A stretch of 60,897 nt of DNA, filler included. It is 5 parts of 5 records of this genome, joined end to end, with 100 filler letters (N's around TTAATTAATTAA, not from the genome) between each part and the next. Parts side by side here need not be neighbours in the genome. Positions count along the whole stretch, not along the records: positions 10,751 to 22,516 come from DRR723986_4567; 4 more parts are not named here. One strand, written 5' to 3'. The notes under the pieces were generated by a model. That model saw only the letters and a program-made list of their open reading frames with translations, ran no database searches and had not been told where the DNA came from. Positions 10,579 to 22,616 of the stretch are shown here, piece by piece (positions within the stretch are counted from its first letter, which is position 1; the number at the start of each line of letters is the position of its first letter). Both the position numbers and the translations under genes were made by a program.

Positions 10579-10650
10579 CCCTCCATTGGTCAGCCCTCCC
10601 ATGGTCACCCCTCCATTCGCCATCCCGGACGCAGCGCAGCGAAGATCCGG
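10579..10650. repeat. Three 15-bp imperfect tandem units running into a REP-like palindromic element cut by the contig end
   Basis: CCCTCCATTGGTCAG / CCCTCCCATGGTCAC / CCCTCCATTCGCCAT then CCCGGACGCAGCGCAGCGAAGATCCGG. Confidence 0.5.
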
Positions 10651-10750
10651 NNNNNNNNNNNNNNNNNNNNNNNNNNNNNNNNNNNNNNNNNNNNTTAATT
10701 AATTAANNNNNNNNNNNNNNNNNNNNNNNNNNNNNNNNNNNNNNNNNNNN
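10651..10750. other. Artificial contig-joining spacer
   Basis: N44-TTAATTAATTAA-N44 (stops in all frames). Confidence 0.98.
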
Positions 10751-11464
10751 GCCACCCCAGCCAAGTTCGTAGTAGGCCCACCAGCTACCCAGTGTGATAC
10801 CAATGGTTAAGAACAACCACGCGATATTGGTCCAGGGTCGTGACCACCGCGCCCAGCTGGCATCCATACGCCCGCTGAGTAAGGCTGCGATGGCAAAGGC
10901 GAACGCCACGGAAAAGCCCACGTAGCCGATGTAGAGCATCGGCGGGTGAATGACCATGCCAGGGTCTTGCAGCAGGGGGTTGAGGTCTTGGCCATCTGCA
11001 GGGGTATTCAGAAGGTTGCGCGCAAACGGGTTCGAGGTAAACAGGGCAAAGCCGAAGAAGCCAATGGCAACCATGCCCATGACCGACAGCACTCTCGCCA
11101 AAATATCCAAGGGGAGTTGCTTGGAAAACACCGCCACGGCAACGGTCCACAGGGTCAGAATCTCCAACCACAATAACAAGGAGCCCTCGTGCCCACCCCA
11201 CAGCGCACTGAATTTATACGCGACGGGCAATTGAGAGTTGGACTGCAGCGCCACAATATTGACGGAGAAATCATCGCTGAGAAAAGCGTAAAACAGGGCG
11301 CTTATGGCCAGCGTGGTGAACAGACACTGCCCCCACGCCAGGGTCGCGCCTGCAGCCATTGCGCGCCGGTCTCCACGCCAGACACCCAACATGGGAACAA
11401 CCGCTAATAACAGCGCAAAAGCAAAACCAAGAATGAGCGAGAAGTGCCCCAGTTCAATAATCAC
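10751..11464 (-). CDS. ccmF: Cytochrome c heme lyase CcmF, N-terminal part
   Basis: [47 protein letters not shown]; truncated by spacer. Confidence 0.95.
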
Positions 11465-14256: not shown

Positions 14257-14420
14257 TCTCGCTGCTCAAGGCCACCGCATGGCGGCAGTCCGATTTAAAA
14301 CGCGGCTAAGTATATACGAAATAACATCGAAATCCGCGCCCGGAATCTGGCGCGGCAATTTGTCGCAGCGGCAAAAGCCTCGCTGACAGGCTGGTGAGTG
14401 CACCCACTACGAGATGGCGG

Positions 14421-15236
14421 TTACTGACCGCCAGATTGATGGCGCTGTAGCCAGCGCTCCATATCCTGGGTCACGAGGTCGAGGTAGGCTAACGCCTTAT
14501 TCAGCTTGTCGCCCTCACTCTCACCCCGGAATCCCATCAAGCGATTGCGCACCCAGGCCAATTCGCTGACGAGGTCACTGATTTGCGGCTCGCTGACACG
14601 CGCCGCCGCGGGTGCCGATTTCAATTCCTTGTCCACCACCGAAGTCGCTGGGCTATACAGGCTATCCAGCAAGGTGTTCAATTTTGCATCGGATTGCGGC
14701 GCGCGACCGGAGGTGGCGGCAGGCCGTGGGTTCGCAGCCGATGACCGCCCCCCTGCTGCCGCGTCGAAAAATACATCCAGTAAGGCATCGCCACTACGCG
14801 GCGCGGGCGCGTCAGGCTTCGCTTTCGACTCGTCACCAGCCTGCCCTGCAGCCTTCAGCAGGCGTCCTCTGAGTTCATCGGGAATACGATTAACGGTTTG
14901 GTGATTAATCAGCCGGCTCAACATCACTTCAATCGCGCTTGTCGCGCCGATAATCAGCGAAACCAGACTCGGGCTGAGGGCAATACGCCGCGTTCTGAGC
15001 CTATCCATTACGCGTTCACTTAAACGCGCACACTCGGTTAGCTCGGCCAGTTCCAGGACCGCAGCACCGCCATAGAGGGTGTGAAAGCCGCGGTGGATAT
15101 CATCCAGTATTCGCTGACCATCATAGCCGTACTGCAGCTCTTCCAGCTGCGCAAACAAGCCCTTAACAATATCTTCGGCTTCCGCCAAAAATATCGCCAG
15201 GATACCTTCGTGTTCGTTTGCGTCCACAGTATGCAC
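14421..15236 (-). CDS. Truncated CheA-derived protein: P1 (Hpt) + linker + dimerization-like helices, no ATP-binding or CheW-like domain
   Basis: FLAEAEDIV...IHRGFHTLYGGAAVL matches the CheA P1 pattern IFRGFHTVKGGAGFL; C-terminal LVSELAWVRNRL...LDLVTQDM matches the CheA P3 pattern; stop follows directly. Confidence 0.75.
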   Translation of the reverse strand: MHTVDANEHEGILAIFLAEAEDIVKGLFAQLEELQYGYDGQRILDDIHRGFHTLYGGAAVLELAELTECARLSERVMDRLRTRRIALSPSLVSLIIGATSAIEVMLSRLINHQTVNRIPDELRGRLLKAAGQAGDESKAKPDAPAPRSGDALLDVFFDAAAGGRSSAANPRPAATSGRAPQSDAKLNTLLDSLYSPATSVVDKELKSAPAAARVSEPQISDLVSELAWVRNRLMGFRGESEGDKLNKALAYLDLVTQDMERWLQRHQSGGQ

Positions 15237-15364
15237 TCTATTGTTATTGATCTCAGGCCAGCTGGATCAGCGAATCCGGGTTCGTAATGGCTGGCAATTA
15301 TGCGCAAAGTCTTGCAGTAACACTGTTGGCCCGGTCACAAAGGGCCGATTTTGTAATCAAATGG

Positions 15365-15832
15365 TCATGTTTTCGACGTATTCGTGCAAAACAGCTCACG
15401 AATTTTGCTTTCCAGCATTGCCGCCGTAAACGGCTTAACGATGTAGGCATCCACCCCAGCCTGCGCAGCGGCGAGGATTTTTTCCCGCTGCGCGTCAGCC
15501 GTGACGATCATCACCGGTATATGCCTCAGGGCACTATCGGCGCGAATAACCCGCAACAGCTCCAACCCTCCCATTTCAGGCATCAACAGATCGGTAATCA
15601 CTAAGTCGAAGTGTTGGTTGTGAAGCATGGGCAATGCCACGCTGCCATCATCAGCTTCACTAATGCGCGCATAACCCAGATCGTTAAGCAAATTGCGCAT
15701 CACACGACGCATGGTGGCGAAATCCTCGACCACCAGAATTCTGATATCGCGCAAGGACGACGCCCCCCGGGCGGGCGAGTCGCTGGCGACATCACTGCTG
15801 GCAAAAGGATCGGGGGAGCGCTCATCACTCAT
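15365..15832 (-). CDS. cheY: Chemotaxis response regulator CheY (with ~25-aa N-terminal extension)
   Basis: ILVVEDFATMRR, VITD phosphoacceptor, VTA, YIVKPFTA; start overlaps fleN end. Confidence 0.88.
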   Translation of the reverse strand: MSDERSPDPFASSDVASDSPARGASSLRDIRILVVEDFATMRRVMRNLLNDLGYARISEADDGSVALPMLHNQHFDLVITDLLMPEMGGLELLRVIRADSALRHIPVMIVTADAQREKILAAAQAGVDAYIVKPFTAAMLESKIRELFCTNTSKT

Positions 15833-16652
15833 GCGGCGCCTCCATTCCAACGGGCTGCTGAATCAGGTTCTCTAGGAAAAACGCAAGCTGGCCCGACGGC
15901 TTGCGCGGCAGAGGCCAATCGCTCACCCGCGTTGCCAAGTCCCGGAACGCCCGCGAGGCCGGTGCACTCGGGGCATAATCGACCACTGGCTGTTGCTTTT
16001 TCACCGCCTCTCTCAATGCCGGGTCAAATGGAATGCTGCCGCTGTAGATGAGACTGACTGTTAAAAACTGCTCGCAGACACCTGCCAGCTTTTGAACCAA
16101 GCGGCGCCCCTCATCTTCGTCGCTAACCATATTGGCCAGAATGCGGAAACGTTGGCGGCCAAAATCACGATTCAATAATTTGATCAGCGCATAGGCGTCG
16201 GTCAGTGACGAGGGCTCATTACAAACCACCACCAGCACCTCCTGGCAGGCGTTGGTAAAGGTTAAAACGGTGTCGGTGATCCCCGCTGCCGTGTCGACGA
16301 TCAATACGTCCAGCTGCGCGGCCAGGTCACTGAATGCCCGGATCACGCCGGCATGCTGTAACTCACTCAGGCGAGTCAGCTGCCGTGCGCCGGAGGATGC
16401 CGGGATAATGCGCACACCAGACGGCCCGCTAATCATTGCTTCTTCCAGTGAGCACTCGCCGCTAAGGACCTGCTCAATAGTCTGCGGGGCCGACAGCGAC
16501 AACAAAACATCAACGTTAGCCAAGCCAAAGTCGGCGTCGAGAATCGCCACGCGCTTACCCTGGTGCGCCAGCGCCACAGCGGTATTGATAGCGACATTGG
16601 TTTTTCCTACACCGCCTTTGCCGCCGCTTACCCCAATAACCTGAACCGTCAT
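15825..16652 (-). CDS. fleN: MinD-like ATPase FleN/FlhG
   Basis: GGKGGVGKTN deviant Walker A, DADFGLANVD, DTAAGI, EPSSLTDAYALIK, C-terminal amphipathic FFLENLI. Confidence 0.9.
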   Translation of the reverse strand: MTVQVIGVSGGKGGVGKTNVAINTAVALAHQGKRVAILDADFGLANVDVLLSLSAPQTIEQVLSGECSLEEAMISGPSGVRIIPASSGARQLTRLSELQHAGVIRAFSDLAAQLDVLIVDTAAGITDTVLTFTNACQEVLVVVCNEPSSLTDAYALIKLLNRDFGRQRFRILANMVSDEDEGRRLVQKLAGVCEQFLTVSLIYSGSIPFDPALREAVKKQQPVVDYAPSAPASRAFRDLATRVSDWPLPRKPSGQLAFFLENLIQQPVGMEAPHE

Positions 16653-17206
16653 AAAGCGCGTCTCCCGGCAAGGGTGTTTTGTGGGTATCGATAGCTACCA
16701 AGATAGCGGTGCCGGGTATCGAGGTATCGCAATCCGATTTGGGCCAGCTCGCGCCTAAGCAGCCGCTGATGCAATGTGGGGCAATCAACAAATACCAGCC
16801 CGCTGGCGGTCGACCACGCTTCCCGGTATGCCTCATACACGGGGTTTACGCGCATGGTGCCGAGTAAGCCGCCCAGCCAAAGCCCAAAGAAAATCAACGC
16901 GCTGGGCAGGGCGTAGCGAACCACTGCCTGCATCGCCTCGGAGAGCTCGCGGCTGTATGGCCAGAGCACGGTAATCAACACCGCTGACATGACGGCGGCC
17001 CAGACTGCACCACGCCAGCTGAGCCCAGGAATATCACTCAGCTGCAGCTCATTGAGATGTGGCAACGACGCTGCCGGAGAACGCGCCTCGTCCCTCGCCC
17101 ACAATCGCAGGCGCCAGTGCGTGCCCTGCTCACGCTGCATCTGCGCCCAACATTCCAGCGCAGACAATGCGGATGCATCGGGAATAACAAATACCAGTTT
17201 ATTCAT
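16649..17206 (-). CDS. Hypothetical two-TM membrane protein
   Basis: 185 aa, two hydrophobic segments (WRGAVWAAVMSAVLITVLWPY; ALPSALIFFGLWLGGLLG); 3 nt after fliN stop, ATGA overlap with fleN. Confidence 0.7.
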   Translation of the reverse strand: MNKLVFVIPDASALSALECWAQMQREQGTHWRLRLWARDEARSPAASLPHLNELQLSDIPGLSWRGAVWAAVMSAVLITVLWPYSRELSEAMQAVVRYALPSALIFFGLWLGGLLGTMRVNPVYEAYREAWSTASGLVFVDCPTLHQRLLRRELAQIGLRYLDTRHRYLGSYRYPQNTLAGRRAL

Positions 17207-17209
17207 AAG

Positions 17210-17599
17210 CTATCGCAGCGACTGCAAACGTTCGGTGGCACTCACAACCTCGGTCAGCCGAATACCAAGTTTGTCATCAACCACCACCACCTCTCCCCGC
17301 GCAATCAGTCGGCCATTGACGAGGACATCCAGCGGTTCACCTGCTTGGCGGTCCAGCTCCACCACTGCGCCCTGCTGTAACTGCAGCAGGTCGCGGATGG
17401 CCATGTCACTGCCACCCACCTCTAGCGTGACGCGGACGGGAATGTCCATCACCATATCGAGGTCCGGCGCCGCCGCTGTGCGCTCTCGAAGCCGGGCCTG
17501 CCCCAACAGGTCAGACGCTCCAGACGACTCTCCCTCTTCCGCTTCTATTTGTTGGCGCAGCATCTCACGCTCTCGCCGCAGGTTTTCTGGCTCTGTCAT
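17210..17599 (-). CDS. fliN: Flagellar switch protein FliN
   Basis: LDMVMDIPVRVTLEVG, GEPLDVLVNGRLIARGEVVVV SpoA domain. Confidence 0.93.
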   Translation of the reverse strand: MTEPENLRREREMLRQQIEAEEGESSGASDLLGQARLRERTAAAPDLDMVMDIPVRVTLEVGGSDMAIRDLLQLQQGAVVELDRQAGEPLDVLVNGRLIARGEVVVVDDKLGIRLTEVVSATERLQSLR

Positions 17600-17617
17600 T
17601 GCCTCACTCCTTATACG

Positions 17618-18571
17618 CTATGCGCGCCCTTTTATTTTTAACGCCAACTGCCCCTTGCTCATACCGACACTGGCCTTGAGCAGCGATACGCCGGATGCCC
17701 GAATTTCCGCTTGCTGACAACTCCCCAAGCTCAGCACATCCCCCACTTTTAAATTGGCGACCTGCCCCAGTGTCATCGCCTTATCTGCCAACACGCAGCG
17801 GGTAGGCAGTGGCGTATCCAGCACGGCGCGCTGCATGGCGCCTTGCCACTGCGGGTCGGGTGCCCGGCTCTGCGCCAGCTCACTCTGAGAGAGACTCTCA
17901 CGCAAGGGCTCGAGCATTGCCAGAGGAAAACACATATGTAGCTCGCCACCGCCGCCGCCCTCGGCATCCAATTGAAAACGGCAAACCACAACGGTGTCCG
18001 CCGCGCCAACGATATTGGCCAGCGAGGGATTCAACTCGGTGCCCATCGGCTTACATTGCAGTGCGGCAACAGGCTTGCACGCTTCTTCAAAGTCAGCGTG
18101 AGCGCGGCTGAGGAGCTTGCCGATCAAACGTCGCTCGGAGGGGCTAAAATCGCGACCATCCGGCACACCCTGGGCCTCGCTGCCGCCGAAGTAGATTTCC
18201 ACTAAGCGAAAGACCAAGCGCGCATCAAAGACCATCATCGCCGTACCCAGTAGCGGCTCGACGCGCATTAAATTCATACTTGAGGGGATATACAGCGAAT
18301 GAAGATATTCCGCGTAGGGCGAGAATTGTAGCTCCAGCAGGCTGACATCAACGTCCTGCCCCAGCACGTCGAGCAAACTACTGCGAAAATGTTCGGCAAA
18401 GCGCTTACTCAGTTGCTCTAAACCCGGCAGGCGACGTGCCTTCGGTTGCTGCCGAGTCGCCAGATCAAACTGGGCATAGCTGGGCTTGGGCTCGATGCCG
18501 GGAACTGCTGGCTCGTCCTTCACGGCGGCCAGTAGCGCGTCTATCTCTGCTTGAGAAAGCAAATCCTTCAT
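17618..18571 (-). CDS. fliM: Flagellar switch protein FliM
   Basis: N-terminal DLLSQAEIDALL CheY-binding peptide, FGG motif, RDFSPSE, C-terminal SpoA (LKVGDVL). Confidence 0.9.
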   Translation of the reverse strand: MKDLLSQAEIDALLAAVKDEPAVPGIEPKPSYAQFDLATRQQPKARRLPGLEQLSKRFAEHFRSSLLDVLGQDVDVSLLELQFSPYAEYLHSLYIPSSMNLMRVEPLLGTAMMVFDARLVFRLVEIYFGGSEAQGVPDGRDFSPSERRLIGKLLSRAHADFEEACKPVAALQCKPMGTELNPSLANIVGAADTVVVCRFQLDAEGGGGGELHMCFPLAMLEPLRESLSQSELAQSRAPDPQWQGAMQRAVLDTPLPTRCVLADKAMTLGQVANLKVGDVLSLGSCQQAEIRASGVSLLKASVGMSKGQLALKIKGRA

Positions 18572-18610
18572 CGCTGCTTCTGCCCCCTCGGCCACCACCA
18601 GCCTGTGTTA

Positions 18611-18624
18611 GTCAAAAAAATGAC
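18611..18624. promoter_or_regulatory. FleQ-type binding site upstream of fliM
   Basis: GTCAAAAAAATGAC, the exact reverse complement of the box at 20295-20308; fits the GTCA-A/T-rich-TGAC FleQ consensus. Confidence 0.6.
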
Positions 18625-18630
18625 GCGCAC

Positions 18631-18963
18631 TTAACAACGCTCCCTGAGTACCCGAAGTGTTATTGCCAAATGTTCCTCAACACGCCGAAGCGCCAGGTTT
18701 GCCGCCGCGGAATCTGTGTCCTTTGCAGCACCCTCCAGGCACTTGCACTCCTCAGCCAAAGCCAATGCAGCCATCCCTAATGCCCCCCCTTTTAAGGTGT
18801 GCGCAATGCGTCGTAGCCGCTCAAAGTCGCTGGCGGCGAAGGCGTCTTGCGCATCAGCGATACGCTGCTGACAATCGCGCTCAAAACTCGCGACCAACAC
18901 ACCGATATCACTGCCCATAACCCGCCGAAGTTCGTCGTATTGTTGCTGGTCAATTGTTGTCAT
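18631..18963 (-). CDS. Stand-alone Hpt phosphotransfer protein (HptB-like)
   Basis: AHTLKGGA motif with the phosphorylatable His; ~110 aa helical; position between fliG and fliM. Confidence 0.85.
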   Translation of the reverse strand: MTTIDQQQYDELRRVMGSDIGVLVASFERDCQQRIADAQDAFAASDFERLRRIAHTLKGGALGMAALALAEECKCLEGAAKDTDSAAANLALRRVEEHLAITLRVLRERC

Positions 18964-18992
18964 AGCTATCCCTGCAAAAGCCAATAAGCGGG

Positions 18993-20273
18993 TTAGTTTC
19001 CAAGTGATAATTTGCGACTGTCGAGCACGATCTCGCCAACACCTGCCAGCCGTTTAGCGGCGGCAACAAGCTCCTGTTTGGCGAGCTCTACTTCGCCATT
19101 AGAGGGCTGCCCAAGCAGACGCTCTTCAGGGTGCTGACTCTGCAGCGCGTTTTGCAATGCCGCACGTAATTCACCGGTGGCGCCTTCAAGCGCACGCAGG
19201 GCGGTCTGCGGGTTGAGCTGAGACACCAGATTTTTCATATCGGCCTCCGTCAAGCGCTGCAACTGATCAAACCCAAACATCTGGTCTTCAACACGCTCGG
19301 CCAGGCCTGGGCGATGCTCCCTCAAGCCCTCCAACAACGCACTTTCATCGGCAACATCCAGCTCATTAAGCAACGCGGCTGCCAGGCTTTCCCCGGTTAA
19401 ACGGCGGCCACTGTGGCCACGCGCGTTCAAGTATTCTTCAATCAACCAATCCAATTCCGCCAACGCAGCGGTCGACAGGGACTCCAACGACGCCAAACGG
19501 CTGAGTAACTCCCTGCGTCGCTGGGGGTCAAAACAGGTAATAACGGCCGCCCCCTGCGCTGGTTCCAAACAGGCGATCAGTACGGCCTGTATTTGCGGAT
19601 GCTCCCTGCGAAGCATGTCCGCTATGGTATCTGCCGCCAACCATTTCAATTTAGCGATCTGCTGCGACTGCCCCTGCAGCGCCAGGTTGCTTTTCACCAG
19701 GGCCGCCCGCTCTTCACCGAGGGCCTCCTCAAGCAAATCGCGAATATCTTCTGCCTGGCTGGGCCGCACCAGGGAAAACTGCAGCATATCGTCGTTAAAG
19801 CGTGCCAGTAATTGCGCTAGCTGCCCGGCATCCGGCGTTGCCAGGGTGGCCATGTAGCCGGTCAATGCTTGAATTCGTTCCGGGCTGAATTCACGCATCA
19901 CGCTTGCGGCAACTTTCGCCTCCAGGGCCATTAGCACCATGGCGGCTTGCTCGGGGGAGCACTGTGAGGTTTGCCCGTCCAGCCAGTGATCAATCACCGC
20001 CGCGACACGCGCTGGTTCACCCTCAGCGGTGGTGCGCAGCAAACGCAAATGAACACCGTAGTCGACCCGTTTATGTTTTTTGACTCGGGGTTTGGTCGCT
20101 GGCTGCGACATAAGTTGTATAAATAGCGCTACGGAGAGGCTTGCGCCGCCGGACAACAGGCTCACACTGAGCCACTCCGCCTGCCTGAGCAGCGCCGCGA
20201 CCGCTGCACCGCCGAGCAATGCGACCAGCAGGAAAAACTGGAATGTAATCAGCACGCGCGGGGCTATTGCCAT
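18993..20273 (-). CDS. fliG: FliG with N-terminal TM anchor and FliF C-terminal motif (FliF'-FliG fusion)
   Basis: Two N-terminal hydrophobic segments; YGVHLRLLRTTAEGEPARVAAVIDHWL (FliF C-tail pattern); then FliG motifs ALGEERA, EHPQ, MFGF, GEIVL. Confidence 0.8.
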   Translation of the reverse strand: MAIAPRVLITFQFFLLVALLGGAAVAALLRQAEWLSVSLLSGGASLSVALFIQLMSQPATKPRVKKHKRVDYGVHLRLLRTTAEGEPARVAAVIDHWLDGQTSQCSPEQAAMVLMALEAKVAASVMREFSPERIQALTGYMATLATPDAGQLAQLLARFNDDMLQFSLVRPSQAEDIRDLLEEALGEERAALVKSNLALQGQSQQIAKLKWLAADTIADMLRREHPQIQAVLIACLEPAQGAAVITCFDPQRRRELLSRLASLESLSTAALAELDWLIEEYLNARGHSGRRLTGESLAAALLNELDVADESALLEGLREHRPGLAERVEDQMFGFDQLQRLTEADMKNLVSQLNPQTALRALEGATGELRAALQNALQSQHPEERLLGQPSNGEVELAKQELVAAAKRLAGVGEIVLDSRKLSLGN

Positions 20274-20294
20274 TGGCTAGCCCCTCCACTAATA

Positions 20295-20356
20295 GTCATT
20301 TTTTTGACAGCGCTGATTTTCAAAGCCACTCAAACCCGTTTCGTCAAATTATTGAC
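20295..20356. promoter_or_regulatory. Pair of FleQ-type boxes in the leader of the fliFG operon
   Basis: GTCATTTTTTTGAC (20295-20308) and GTCAAATTATTGAC (20343-20356). Confidence 0.65.
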
Positions 20357-21364: not shown

Positions 21365-21658
21365 AGCTATTGCCTGTGTATCGGTGAACGAAGACGAGCG
21401 GCGCATTATATAGAGTTGGCTAAATATCAGCCACAAAGGCTTGAAAAATTCCCCTTCCGGCGTTGGAAACGCCGCTGCGACTGGTAATCTTTGCCTTAGG
21501 TGTCTATTATTAGCGCGCCAAAATCTGCTGGCATGAGGTGTTATTTTTACACGGCCAGACCCCGGCACGGGTGCATGCCGGATTGTGTAATCCACGTCCG
21601 GTCGCACCCGCTCACAACCGGCTTAAGACCAGATCACTTACCAGAAAGGGAACGCTCC

Positions 21659-22516
21659 ATGAAACAACCCGTTCGTGTCACCGTTACCGGTGCAGCAGGC
21701 CAGATTGGCTATGCACTGCTTTTCCGTATCGCTTCCGGCGCTATGCTGGGCGACGATCAGCCCGTCATTCTGCAACTGCTGGACATCACTCCTGCTCTGG
21801 ACGCGCTGGAAGGCGTAAAAATGGAGCTTGAAGACTGTGCCTTCCCACTGCTGAGCGGTGTTGTCTGCACTGACGACCCCAATGTTGGCTTCAAGGACAG
21901 CGATTACGCCCTGCTTGTTGGCGCTCGCCCACGTGGCCCCGGCATGGAGCGCAAGGACCTGCTGGAAGCAAATGCCGCGATCTTCTCTGTTCAGGGTAAA
22001 GCGATCGACGAAAATGCCAGCAAAGATATCAAAGTACTGGTAGTCGGCAACCCTGCCAACACCAACGCTCTGATCACTCAGCGCAATGCGCCTTCTATCA
22101 ACCCGCGCAACTTCACAGCAATGACTCGCCTGGACCACAACCGCGCGATGACGCAGATTGCTCAGAAAACCGGCAAAACCGTTAACGACGTAACGAACAT
22201 GACCATCTGGGGCAACCACTCTGCCACTCAGTACCCGGATCTGTTCAACGCAAAAGTTGCGGGTGAAACGGCCTCTGACCTGGTTGATCAAGAATGGCTG
22301 GAGAACGACTTCATCCCAACGGTTCAGCAGCGTGGCGCAGCCATCATCAAGGCACGCGGTGCGTCTTCTGCAGCGTCAGCAGCCAATGCGGCTATCGACC
22401 ACATGCGCAGCTGGGCACTGGGTACTGAAGGCGACGACTGGGTATCTATGGGCGTATACAGCGACGGTAGCTACGGCATTCAAGAAGGCCTGATCTACTC
22501 CTTCCCCTGCCGCTGC
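21659..22516 (+). CDS. mdh: Malate dehydrogenase (type 2), 3'-truncated
   Basis: [46 protein letters not shown]. Confidence 0.96.
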
Positions 22517-22616
22517 NNNNNNNNNNNNNNNNNNNNNNNNNNNNNNNNNNNNNNNNNNNNTTAATTAATTAANNNNNNNNNNNNNNNNNNNNNNNNNNNN
22601 NNNNNNNNNNNNNNNN
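22517..22616. other. Artificial contig-joining spacer
   Basis: N44-TTAATTAATTAA-N44. Confidence 0.98.

Follow-up and report, generated by a model that had tools for sequence, protein, structure and literature searches.

In this study, we analyse a fliG-like gene on the minus strand, at 18993..20273, of a 60,897-nucleotide stretch of DNA from a marine bacterium (the window), and show that its product, here called FliG', keeps the assembly motifs of FliG and has lost the five charges with which FliG contacts the stator. The open reading frame (ORF) of 426 residues comprises a two-helix membrane hairpin, a peptide resembling the tail of FliF, and the domains FliG_N, FliG_M and FliG_C, and GGAGG lies about 9 nucleotides upstream of its ATG (position 20273). 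A 99% identical counterpart is encoded by Spongiibacter marinus DSM 17750 (genome G001), which was used for the whole-genome searches, and the counterpart in Neomelitea salexigens is 95% identical. Pfam recognizes FliG_N at residues 107-203 (E 9.7e-20), FliG_M at 215-285 (E 2.1e-21) and FliG_C at 316-417 (E 6.1e-15, profile positions 2-108 of 108), each passing its cut-off. A phmmer search of solved-structure sequences returned FliG chains as top matches, including Salmonella 8umd_B (E 5.8e-33), and a Foldseek search with the predicted FliG' model also placed FliG chains first (8wo5_B5, E 1.8e-13), with a target template modelling score (TM-score) of 0.70-0.77 against 1qc7 (FliG_C). On the NCBIfam FliG equivalog TIGR00207, FliG' scores 151.2 bits and falls under the cut-off of 226.7, outside that equivalog; the canonical FliG from this genus (342 residues) scores 300.3 bits. 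Judged by its sequence, FliG' is a true FliG homolog with three domains and with the FliM-binding and hinge motifs.

FliG and FliM are a textbook interaction pair, and it is the EHPQ motif of FliG that binds FliM. In FliG' this motif stands at residues 224-227 (19593..19604, minus strand), and the MFGF form of the MFxF hinge was read directly at residues 332-335 (19269..19280, minus strand). Their conservation was followed in a MAFFT alignment of 70 rows, consisting of FliG' and 20 relatives of its group (the paralog group) and of the same-genus canonical FliG (L003:820-1848) and 48 canonical representatives. Residues E224, P226, Q227, R259 and G294 are invariant over all 70 rows and H225, F333 and F335 nearly so; within the paralogs, the M and both F residues of the hinge each reach 0.90. 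The claim of an earlier sequence-based note on this gene (the original prediction) that EHPQ and MFGF are both intact was therefore borne out.

It is well established that K264, R281, D288, D289 and R297 of E. coli FliG contact MotA, and few features of the bacterial flagellar motor are as conserved as the torque helix of FliG. The original prediction placed the loss of this feature at 19074-19202 (minus strand), corresponding to FliG' residues 358-400, in which the degenerate torque region occupies residues 361-396, from ALEGA to VE (19086..19193, minus strand; ALEGATGELRAALQNALQSQHPEERLLGQPSNGEVE). Salmonella FliG shares the E. coli numbering, and phmmer alignment with 8umd_B pairs K264 with E363, R281 with H381 and R297 with S391 of FliG', while D288 and D289 fall within a 6-residue gap. 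MAFFT aligns R281 with Q380 instead, and neither residue is basic. The span from ALxGA to VE measures 36 residues in FliG' versus 41 in Salmonella FliG, a net difference of five. The two conserved alanines that flank the segment enclose 43 residues in each of the 49 canonical rows, 36-55 in the paralogs and 38 in FliG'. Position by position, K or R at 264 is found in 46 of 49 canonical rows and in none of the 21 paralog-group rows, R at 281 in 49 and 1, D or E at 288 in 47 and 1, D or E at 289 in 48 and 1, and K or R at 297 in 47 and 3, respectively. All five charges are present in 45/49 canonical rows, the exceptions being P0047 (three charges), P0064 (four), P0081 (four) and P0068 (one); the paralog group has none in 16/21 rows, FliG' among them (0/5), one in 4/21 and two in 1/21. 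As to the EER segment of FliG', which had been named as the place where equivalent charges might survive, its charges are not kept, for orthologs show SGAIL, PSLAD, PAVAP or DYRAV there. Thus the predicted loss of the five stator-contacting charges, the replacement of Lys by Glu and the shortening by about five residues all held on alignment. As a separate observation, P0068 groups with the canonical FliGs and keeps one of the five torque charges; possibly it is a further FliG that became torque-less independently.

The predicted structure of FliG' points the same way. AlphaFold2, run on the 70-row alignment, gave a model of mean predicted local distance difference test score (pLDDT) 86.5, in which MFGF is followed by helices at residues 335-340, 343-351, 355-364 and 367-380, a coil at 381-391 and a helix at 392-412. 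The coil (HPEERLLGQPS; 19101..19133, minus strand) is predicted with pLDDT of about 95. The control, a model of the same-genus canonical FliG built from these 70 sequences (pLDDT 87.9), has helices at 247-252, 255-264, 269-274, 279-287, 291-304 and 309-328, of which 291-304 is the torque helix holding R292, D299 and D300. The FliG' model therefore has one helix fewer than the control, namely the torque helix, with Pro382 at the break, and the torque helix is predicted to be absent from the FliG_C domain of FliG', as the original prediction had it. At the other end of this domain, within residues 401-426 (18993-19070, minus strand), the paralogs end after the last helix in GEI(V/I)LD.R.L, with R420 at 0.81, where canonical FliGs carry a glycine-rich tail; this ending could be a paralog-specific contact site.

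The mean column conservation of the paralog group and of the canonical FliGs is 0.58 and 0.45 in FliG_N, 0.66 and 0.51 in FliG_M, 0.66 and 0.46 in the linker/ARM_C, and 0.65 and 0.61 in the last helix. In residues 361-396 it is 0.41 and 0.67, so that the torque segment, the most conserved region of canonical FliG, is the least conserved FliG region of the paralogs (membrane part aside). Compared with single orthologs, FliG' differs at 14-78% of positions in the torque segment and at 3-45% in residues 105-360, a rate of change 1.6 to 4.7 times higher in the former. Even against the 95%-identical ortholog there are 5 changes in the 36 residues of the torque segment and 8 in the 256 of residues 105-360, and the last helix shows 0/23 changes against this ortholog and 1/23 against a 75%-identical one. 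The torque segment thus varies more than the remainder of FliG', and FliG' is under purifying selection except at the would-be stator contact. This agrees with the proposal that selection kept the assembly surfaces and dropped the torque residues, given the 0.58-0.66 of FliG_N, FliG_M and the last helix versus the 0.41 of the torque segment.

The same data bear on the idea that FliG' is still a rotor, whose rewired surface would take stator force and drive something other than a flagellum. Candidates for such a stator are the genome's single PomAB/MotAB-like unit, an ExbB/TolQ-type motor, and the 185-residue membrane protein encoded in the same gene cluster. The FliG_C domain is whole, the charged positions R370, R420 and E414 are conserved (the first two in paralogs only), the operon contains that conserved membrane protein of no known family, and the genome has five more MotA_ExbB-family matches beyond the two examined, all of which would suit such a rotor. 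However, all five canonical contact positions are gone, and segment length and sequence vary even among close orthologs, unlike a working interface. Moreover, the cluster has no stator gene, the 185-residue protein evolves fast (21-45% identity), and the Spongiibacter anchor offers no periplasmic domain through which rotation might be coupled beyond the cytoplasm. We consider a rewired rotor quite unlikely.

This anchor is the hairpin at residues 5-56 (20106..20261, minus strand), modelled by AlphaFold2 as helices 5-29 and 33-56 with a 3-residue link. Its sequence is hydrophobic, followed by KPRVKKHKR, and it would be membrane-spanning. Ahead of FliG_N, residues 70-99 (19977..20066, minus strand) resemble the C-terminal tail of FliF by BLASTP and in the model: they match the C-terminus of the same-genus FliF at 9 of 29 positions in a single comparison (E 0.001) and are predicted to form helices 72-85 and 87-99 with pLDDT of about 95. 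By phmmer, FliG' gives a weak and non-significant alignment to the FliF portion of 8z4d, a fusion, and the Foldseek match to 5tdy_B, the FliF C-terminus in complex with FliG_N, has a probability of 0.94 but an E value of 2.2. Pfam found no YscJ_FliF match in the 426 residues and the inter-helix loop has only 3 residues, hence the periplasmic ring-building domain is not retained. With FliF-type membrane segments and a FliG-binding tail, albeit of weak similarity, in one chain, FliG' has the make-up of a natural FliF-FliG fusion.

Other members of the group illustrate this further. In a Zhongshania-type genome (L022), a separate 230-residue mini-FliF gene (10614-11306, minus strand) lies directly upstream of an unfused FliG' of 331 residues. 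The mini-FliF has two membrane segments with about 130 residues between them and ends in the same tail peptide (ENDYRDQLLRFKSIAQEEPARVASVL...), which supports the FliF-tail identity of the peptide in FliG'. P0023, P0031 and L024 are fused proteins of about 537-557 residues, whose membrane segments are separated by a short region. The YscJ_FliF ring domain was not detected in any of these forms, P0023 having a sub-threshold YscJ_FliF_C match (E 0.0022). The L022 arrangement resembles an intermediate stage in FliF-FliG fusion, and the series from a separate mini-FliF, through a fusion of about 550 residues, to the bare hairpin of Spongiibacter offers a stepwise view of how dispensable FliF is.

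FliG' heads a cluster of genes that share the minus strand with short gaps or overlaps, with ttcA upstream and ccmA, ccmB, ccmC and ccmE downstream. Next to it is a 117-residue Hpt phosphotransfer protein (18631..18984, minus strand; Pfam Hpt E 8.7e-11), found in 5/6 related loci. FliM' (17618..18598, minus strand; Pfam FliM E 2.9e-41, and FliMN_C) passes the TIGR01397 cut-off of 219.6 with 230.2 bits and carries the N-terminal peptide LSQAEIDALL, of the classical CheY-binding type; translation probably begins at the ATG at 18571. FliN' (17210..17599, minus strand) passes TIGR02480 with 112.7 bits (cut-off 84.05). Between FliN' and a MinD/FlhG-like P-loop ATPase lies the 185-residue predicted membrane protein (16649..17206, minus strand), which has no Pfam or NCBIfam match, hits only unnamed clusters in the ESM Atlas, and is syntenic in 5/6 related loci. 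The ATPase (15825..16652, minus strand) matches Pfam ParA and CbiA, with the NCBIfam MinD models under cut-off, and shares 50% identity with its MinD-like counterpart in the canonical flagellar locus. It is followed by the response regulator CheY' (15365..15850, minus strand; Response_reg E 5.8e-29), which scores 152.6 bits on NF007901, under the cut-off of 189, and shares 53-57% identity with cheY from outgroup flagellar loci. The last gene encodes a 271-residue Hpt protein (14421..15236, minus strand) with a Pfam match to Hpt only and weak CheA matches confined to the P1 part. Its residues 10-247 align to the start of a 739-residue ORF in the outgroup genome G196 (L040 12325-14544), and it looks like an N-terminal remnant of CheA, namely the phosphotransfer and linker part without the kinase.

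No genes for export (FliH and FliI included), FliF, rod, hook, filament, stator or kinase domains were found in the cluster. A scan for promoters and terminators gave nothing beyond shuffled expectation, and sigma-28 or sigma-54 boxes sought by eye upstream were unconvincing. Contigs from four marine metatranscriptome runs (at most three samples, from three studies) cover 14400-20300, with DNA carry-over being possible; most have 95-99% identity, one at least 99% and one 90-95%, and one contig of 5,461 nucleotides spans 14957-20300. We do not count this RNA-library coverage as proof that the cluster is transcribed. Further to the right, at 22518-22616 of the window, two runs of N surround an all-frame stop linker (TTAATTAATTAA) inside an apparent malate dehydrogenase gene (ORF 21500-22564), indicating that the window is a scaffold joined there and that the sequence to the right may be non-adjacent in the genome.

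The host has a canonical flagellar system besides. The S. marinus genome contains two FliG_C matches, two FliM matches and one FliF-family match, the latter in the canonical locus, which is complete from flgB through flgI, flgK, flgL, flagellin, fliD, fliE through fliM, fliN, a fliO-like gene, fliP, fliQ, fliR, flhB, flhA, flhF, a MinD-like gene and fliA. FliG' is not encoded with a full FliF MS ring (membrane/supramembrane ring) and export apparatus, and thus stands outside the context of a canonical FliG. Among seven MotA_ExbB matches in the genome, the two examined are a PomA/MotA-like gene beside a MotB-like gene, and TolQ. The canonical FliM (L036 8241-9194, plus strand) scores 173 bits on TIGR01397, under the 219.6 cut-off, and bears the variant peptide LDPEELEALM; it is outscored on this model by its paralog FliM', the one that bears LSQAEIDALL. 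According to PMC8805636, the related Spongiibacter nanhainus has a single flagellum, swims, and has been subjected to gene deletion, and PMC12216289 reports one polar flagellum in Zhongshania strains by cryo-TEM.

It could be argued that FliG', FliM' and FliN' act in or on this real motor, serving as torque-dead subunits or as decoys, which would join its C-ring (cytoplasmic ring) or titrate the parts of that ring and so brake or tune it. The retained EHPQ and MFxF ring-contact surfaces and the classical CheY-binding-type peptide of FliM' would fit, as would the presence of only one flagellum in these organisms (PMC8805636 and PMC12216289) and the precedent of a second FliG in the Borrelia FliG1/FliG2 pair (PMC7225975). 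Against it, the FliF-tail-like peptide of FliG' should fill the FliG_N pocket of the same protein, FliG' has partners of its own in FliM' and FliN', and a membrane hairpin without ring-building domains cannot enter the MS ring. Mixed rings are doubtful also because identity to the canonical counterpart is only 25-26% for FliG' and 28% for FliM'. A role of this kind is in our view unlikely.

FliG' is widespread in the host family, which is named Spongiibacteraceae in PMC12216289. In a survey of 40 family genomes, 39 match FliG' at E <= 1e-10, and 34 list two FliG matches, one of paralog and one of canonical type (24-29% identity). The paralog type is found at E <= 1e-49 in 26 genomes, and nine further genomes have weaker matches starting from query residue 39-74, the FliF-tail part included, in open frames of 391-574 residues. 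Only one paralog-type match, in G036, contains an internal stop. In the order at large, 108 of 201 genomes sampled match at E <= 1e-35, with E <= 1e-75 in only five, all family members, and the next best match (5.2e-46, 33% identity) belongs to frames of canonical size. An exhaustive search of representatives returned 24 clusters at E <= 1e-30, only about seven of them of the paralog kind. In a quick, unrooted maximum-likelihood tree, 19 of the 21 paralog-group rows form one clade with a Shimodaira-Hasegawa-like approximate likelihood ratio test (SH-aLRT) support of 99 and a stem of 0.67, the 49 canonical rows form the opposing clade (99), and P0026 and P0031 fall in between. The eight-gene order between ttcA and ccmA is kept in 5/6 family loci, the sixth (L024) having FliG', FliM', FliN' and CheY' only.

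This distribution bears on the question of whether the cluster is a decaying, functionless remnant of a lost flagellar system. Such decay would account for the absence of export, rod, hook, filament, stator and kinase genes from the cluster and for a torque segment that drifts freely. It would not account for frames that are intact in nearly all family genomes, nor for the conserved order of eight genes, a conservation of 0.58-0.66 outside the torque segment, and a last helix with no change or a single one among its 23 residues against the 95%- and 75%-identical orthologs; the four RNA libraries whose contigs cover the cluster also speak against it, though DNA carry-over may be behind them. 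We regard decay as highly improbable, and rejected a pseudogene remnant on the grounds of intact frames, conserved order and strong conservation.

The gene order in outgroups suggests where the cluster came from. In the canonical flagellar locus of three outgroup genomes from the order, FliG is followed after about 11-22 kb by FliM and FliN, after about 8 kb by CheY, and then by the match to the 271-residue protein. Only one of these genomes has a MinD-like match (52% identity) in the interval from FliN to CheY. In G196 the 739-residue ORF comes after ORFs of 141 and 262 residues, and our reading of this layout is cheY, cheZ and cheA. FliG' scores 153-167 bits against the outgroup locus and 97.8 against the same-genus canonical locus, FliM' 210-224 and 105, and FliN' 112-121 and 93, respectively. 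To judge from these matches the cluster is collinear with a polar flagellar/che locus next to ccmA in outgroups, and this collinearity means that it may be that locus cut down. That an ancestral polar flagellar/che locus was cut down in place while the other gene set drives swimming seems to us slightly better than an even guess.

What the cluster does can be addressed by considering its parts together. We infer a non-motor role for FliG', as the rotor-type subunit of a second switch complex without a motor, and we think it fairly probable that its complex is a non-rotating, CheY'-responsive platform for signalling or scaffolding at the membrane. The hairpin and FliF tail would tether FliG' to the inner membrane, FliG' holding its own FliF tail, and FliG'_M would recruit FliM' and FliN' through EHPQ. 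The MinD-like ATPase may govern assembly or placement, as FlhG does for FliM/FliN C-rings. Phosphoryl groups from a kinase encoded elsewhere would pass via the Hpt protein and the CheA remnant, which has no kinase domains, to CheY', whose phosphorylated form (CheY'-P) would bind the LSQAEIDALL peptide of FliM', and the complex would serve as a static platform operated by CheY'-P. With no stator interface, export gate, rod or axial parts, such a complex could not deliver filament rotation; as candidate outputs, it might control how many flagella there are or where they are placed, act in pole identity, or buffer the phosphoryl flow of chemotaxis. It is possible, though we put it forward tentatively and with some doubt, that the C-ring has here been turned into a stand-alone, non-rotating signalling device kept through the whole history of the family. 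Such a device would consist of the FliF tail-FliG' tether, FliM', FliN', the FlhG-like ATPase, CheY' and the two phosphotransfer proteins; CheY'-P would still flip the FliM'/FliG' switch, and a new partner of FliG_C would replace the stators as its reader.

Several observations weigh against this interpretation of the protein and its cluster. In 5 of the 21 paralog-group rows, one or two charges out of five persist, and loss of the charges rather than ancestral absence is argued solely from their near-universality, the tree being unrooted. The missing helix depends on a single prediction method. The Pfam match to FliG_C extends through the entire profile, which means that this domain is intact and might bear a new interface, and some charged positions, R370 (0.90) and R420 (0.81), are conserved in the paralogs alone, with E414 (0.90) conserved as well. 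Any ring formed by FliG' would have to assemble without the periplasmic ring of FliF as a template. As to origin, linkage to ccmA, about 9-10 kb beyond, holds in only 2/3 outgroups, and MinD' is no nearer to the outgroup locus (251 bits) than to the same-genus canonical locus (268 bits), which lends no aid to a cutting down in place.

If the platform interpretation is right, a family-wide, selectively maintained FliG that has no torque feature but keeps FliM binding, hinge, tether and CheY input would be a natural case of switching separated from torque. If the complex assembles, it would be a minimal switch complex without MS ring, export gate and stators, useful for the study of C-ring assembly and CheY-driven conformational change in isolation, and an example of a motor part reused in signalling. 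Since gene deletion is feasible in S. nanhainus (PMC8805636), the question is directly testable in a related species. Neither a FliG without the torque helix nor this cluster is described in the literature searched, the proteomics supplements of PMC8805636 lying outside that search.

Among known systems, canonical FliG, as represented by Salmonella (8umd, 8wo5), Thermotoga (1lkv, 1qc7) and Aquifex (3hjl), shares with FliG' the three domains, EHPQ, MFxF and the conserved last helix. In contrast to it, FliG' falls under the TIGR00207 cut-off, lacks the five charges, is five residues shorter in the torque segment, has a predicted coil for the torque helix, and is fused to a hairpin and FliF-tail-like peptide with no FliF, FliH or FliI alongside. 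In polar flagellates FlhG/FleN guides C-ring assembly, acting on FliM and FliN, according to the review PMC12826062, which refers to Schuhmacher 2015. The cluster resembles these systems in that a MinD-like ATPase is encoded with FliM and FliN and FliM' has an EIDAL-type N-terminal peptide. However, the cluster ATPase is a second copy, the canonical locus having its own, and the cluster is without FlhF, FliA, export or axial genes.

Two other cases come close to FliG' itself. In Chlamydiaceae, a FliF with a shortened periplasmic region is naturally fused to a FliG-like sequence and suspected of a non-flagellar role (Bergeron 2016, PMC4768692). As described there, the chlamydial fusion has preserved some of the periplasmic region and, of FliG, just a FliG_M-like portion, and its host has no flagella. 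FliG', on the other hand, has no periplasmic part (the 3-residue loop) and three FliG domains, and it is accompanied by a dedicated FliM', FliN' and CheY' in a flagellated host. Borrelia burgdorferi has, like the present host, two fliG genes and one kind of flagellum, with one copy, FliG1 or FliG2, specialised; the review PMC7225975 gives the Borrelia paralog a place in the flagellar motor and its torque, whereas FliG' is without the torque residues and has its own set of FliM, FliN and CheY. FliG' and its cluster genes unite, in a flagellated host, a three-domain FliG without the torque helix, a FliF-tail fusion and a dedicated set of FliM, FliN, CheY, Hpt and FlhG-like genes, traits that are not found together in canonical FliG, in the chlamydial fusion or in the Borrelia pair.

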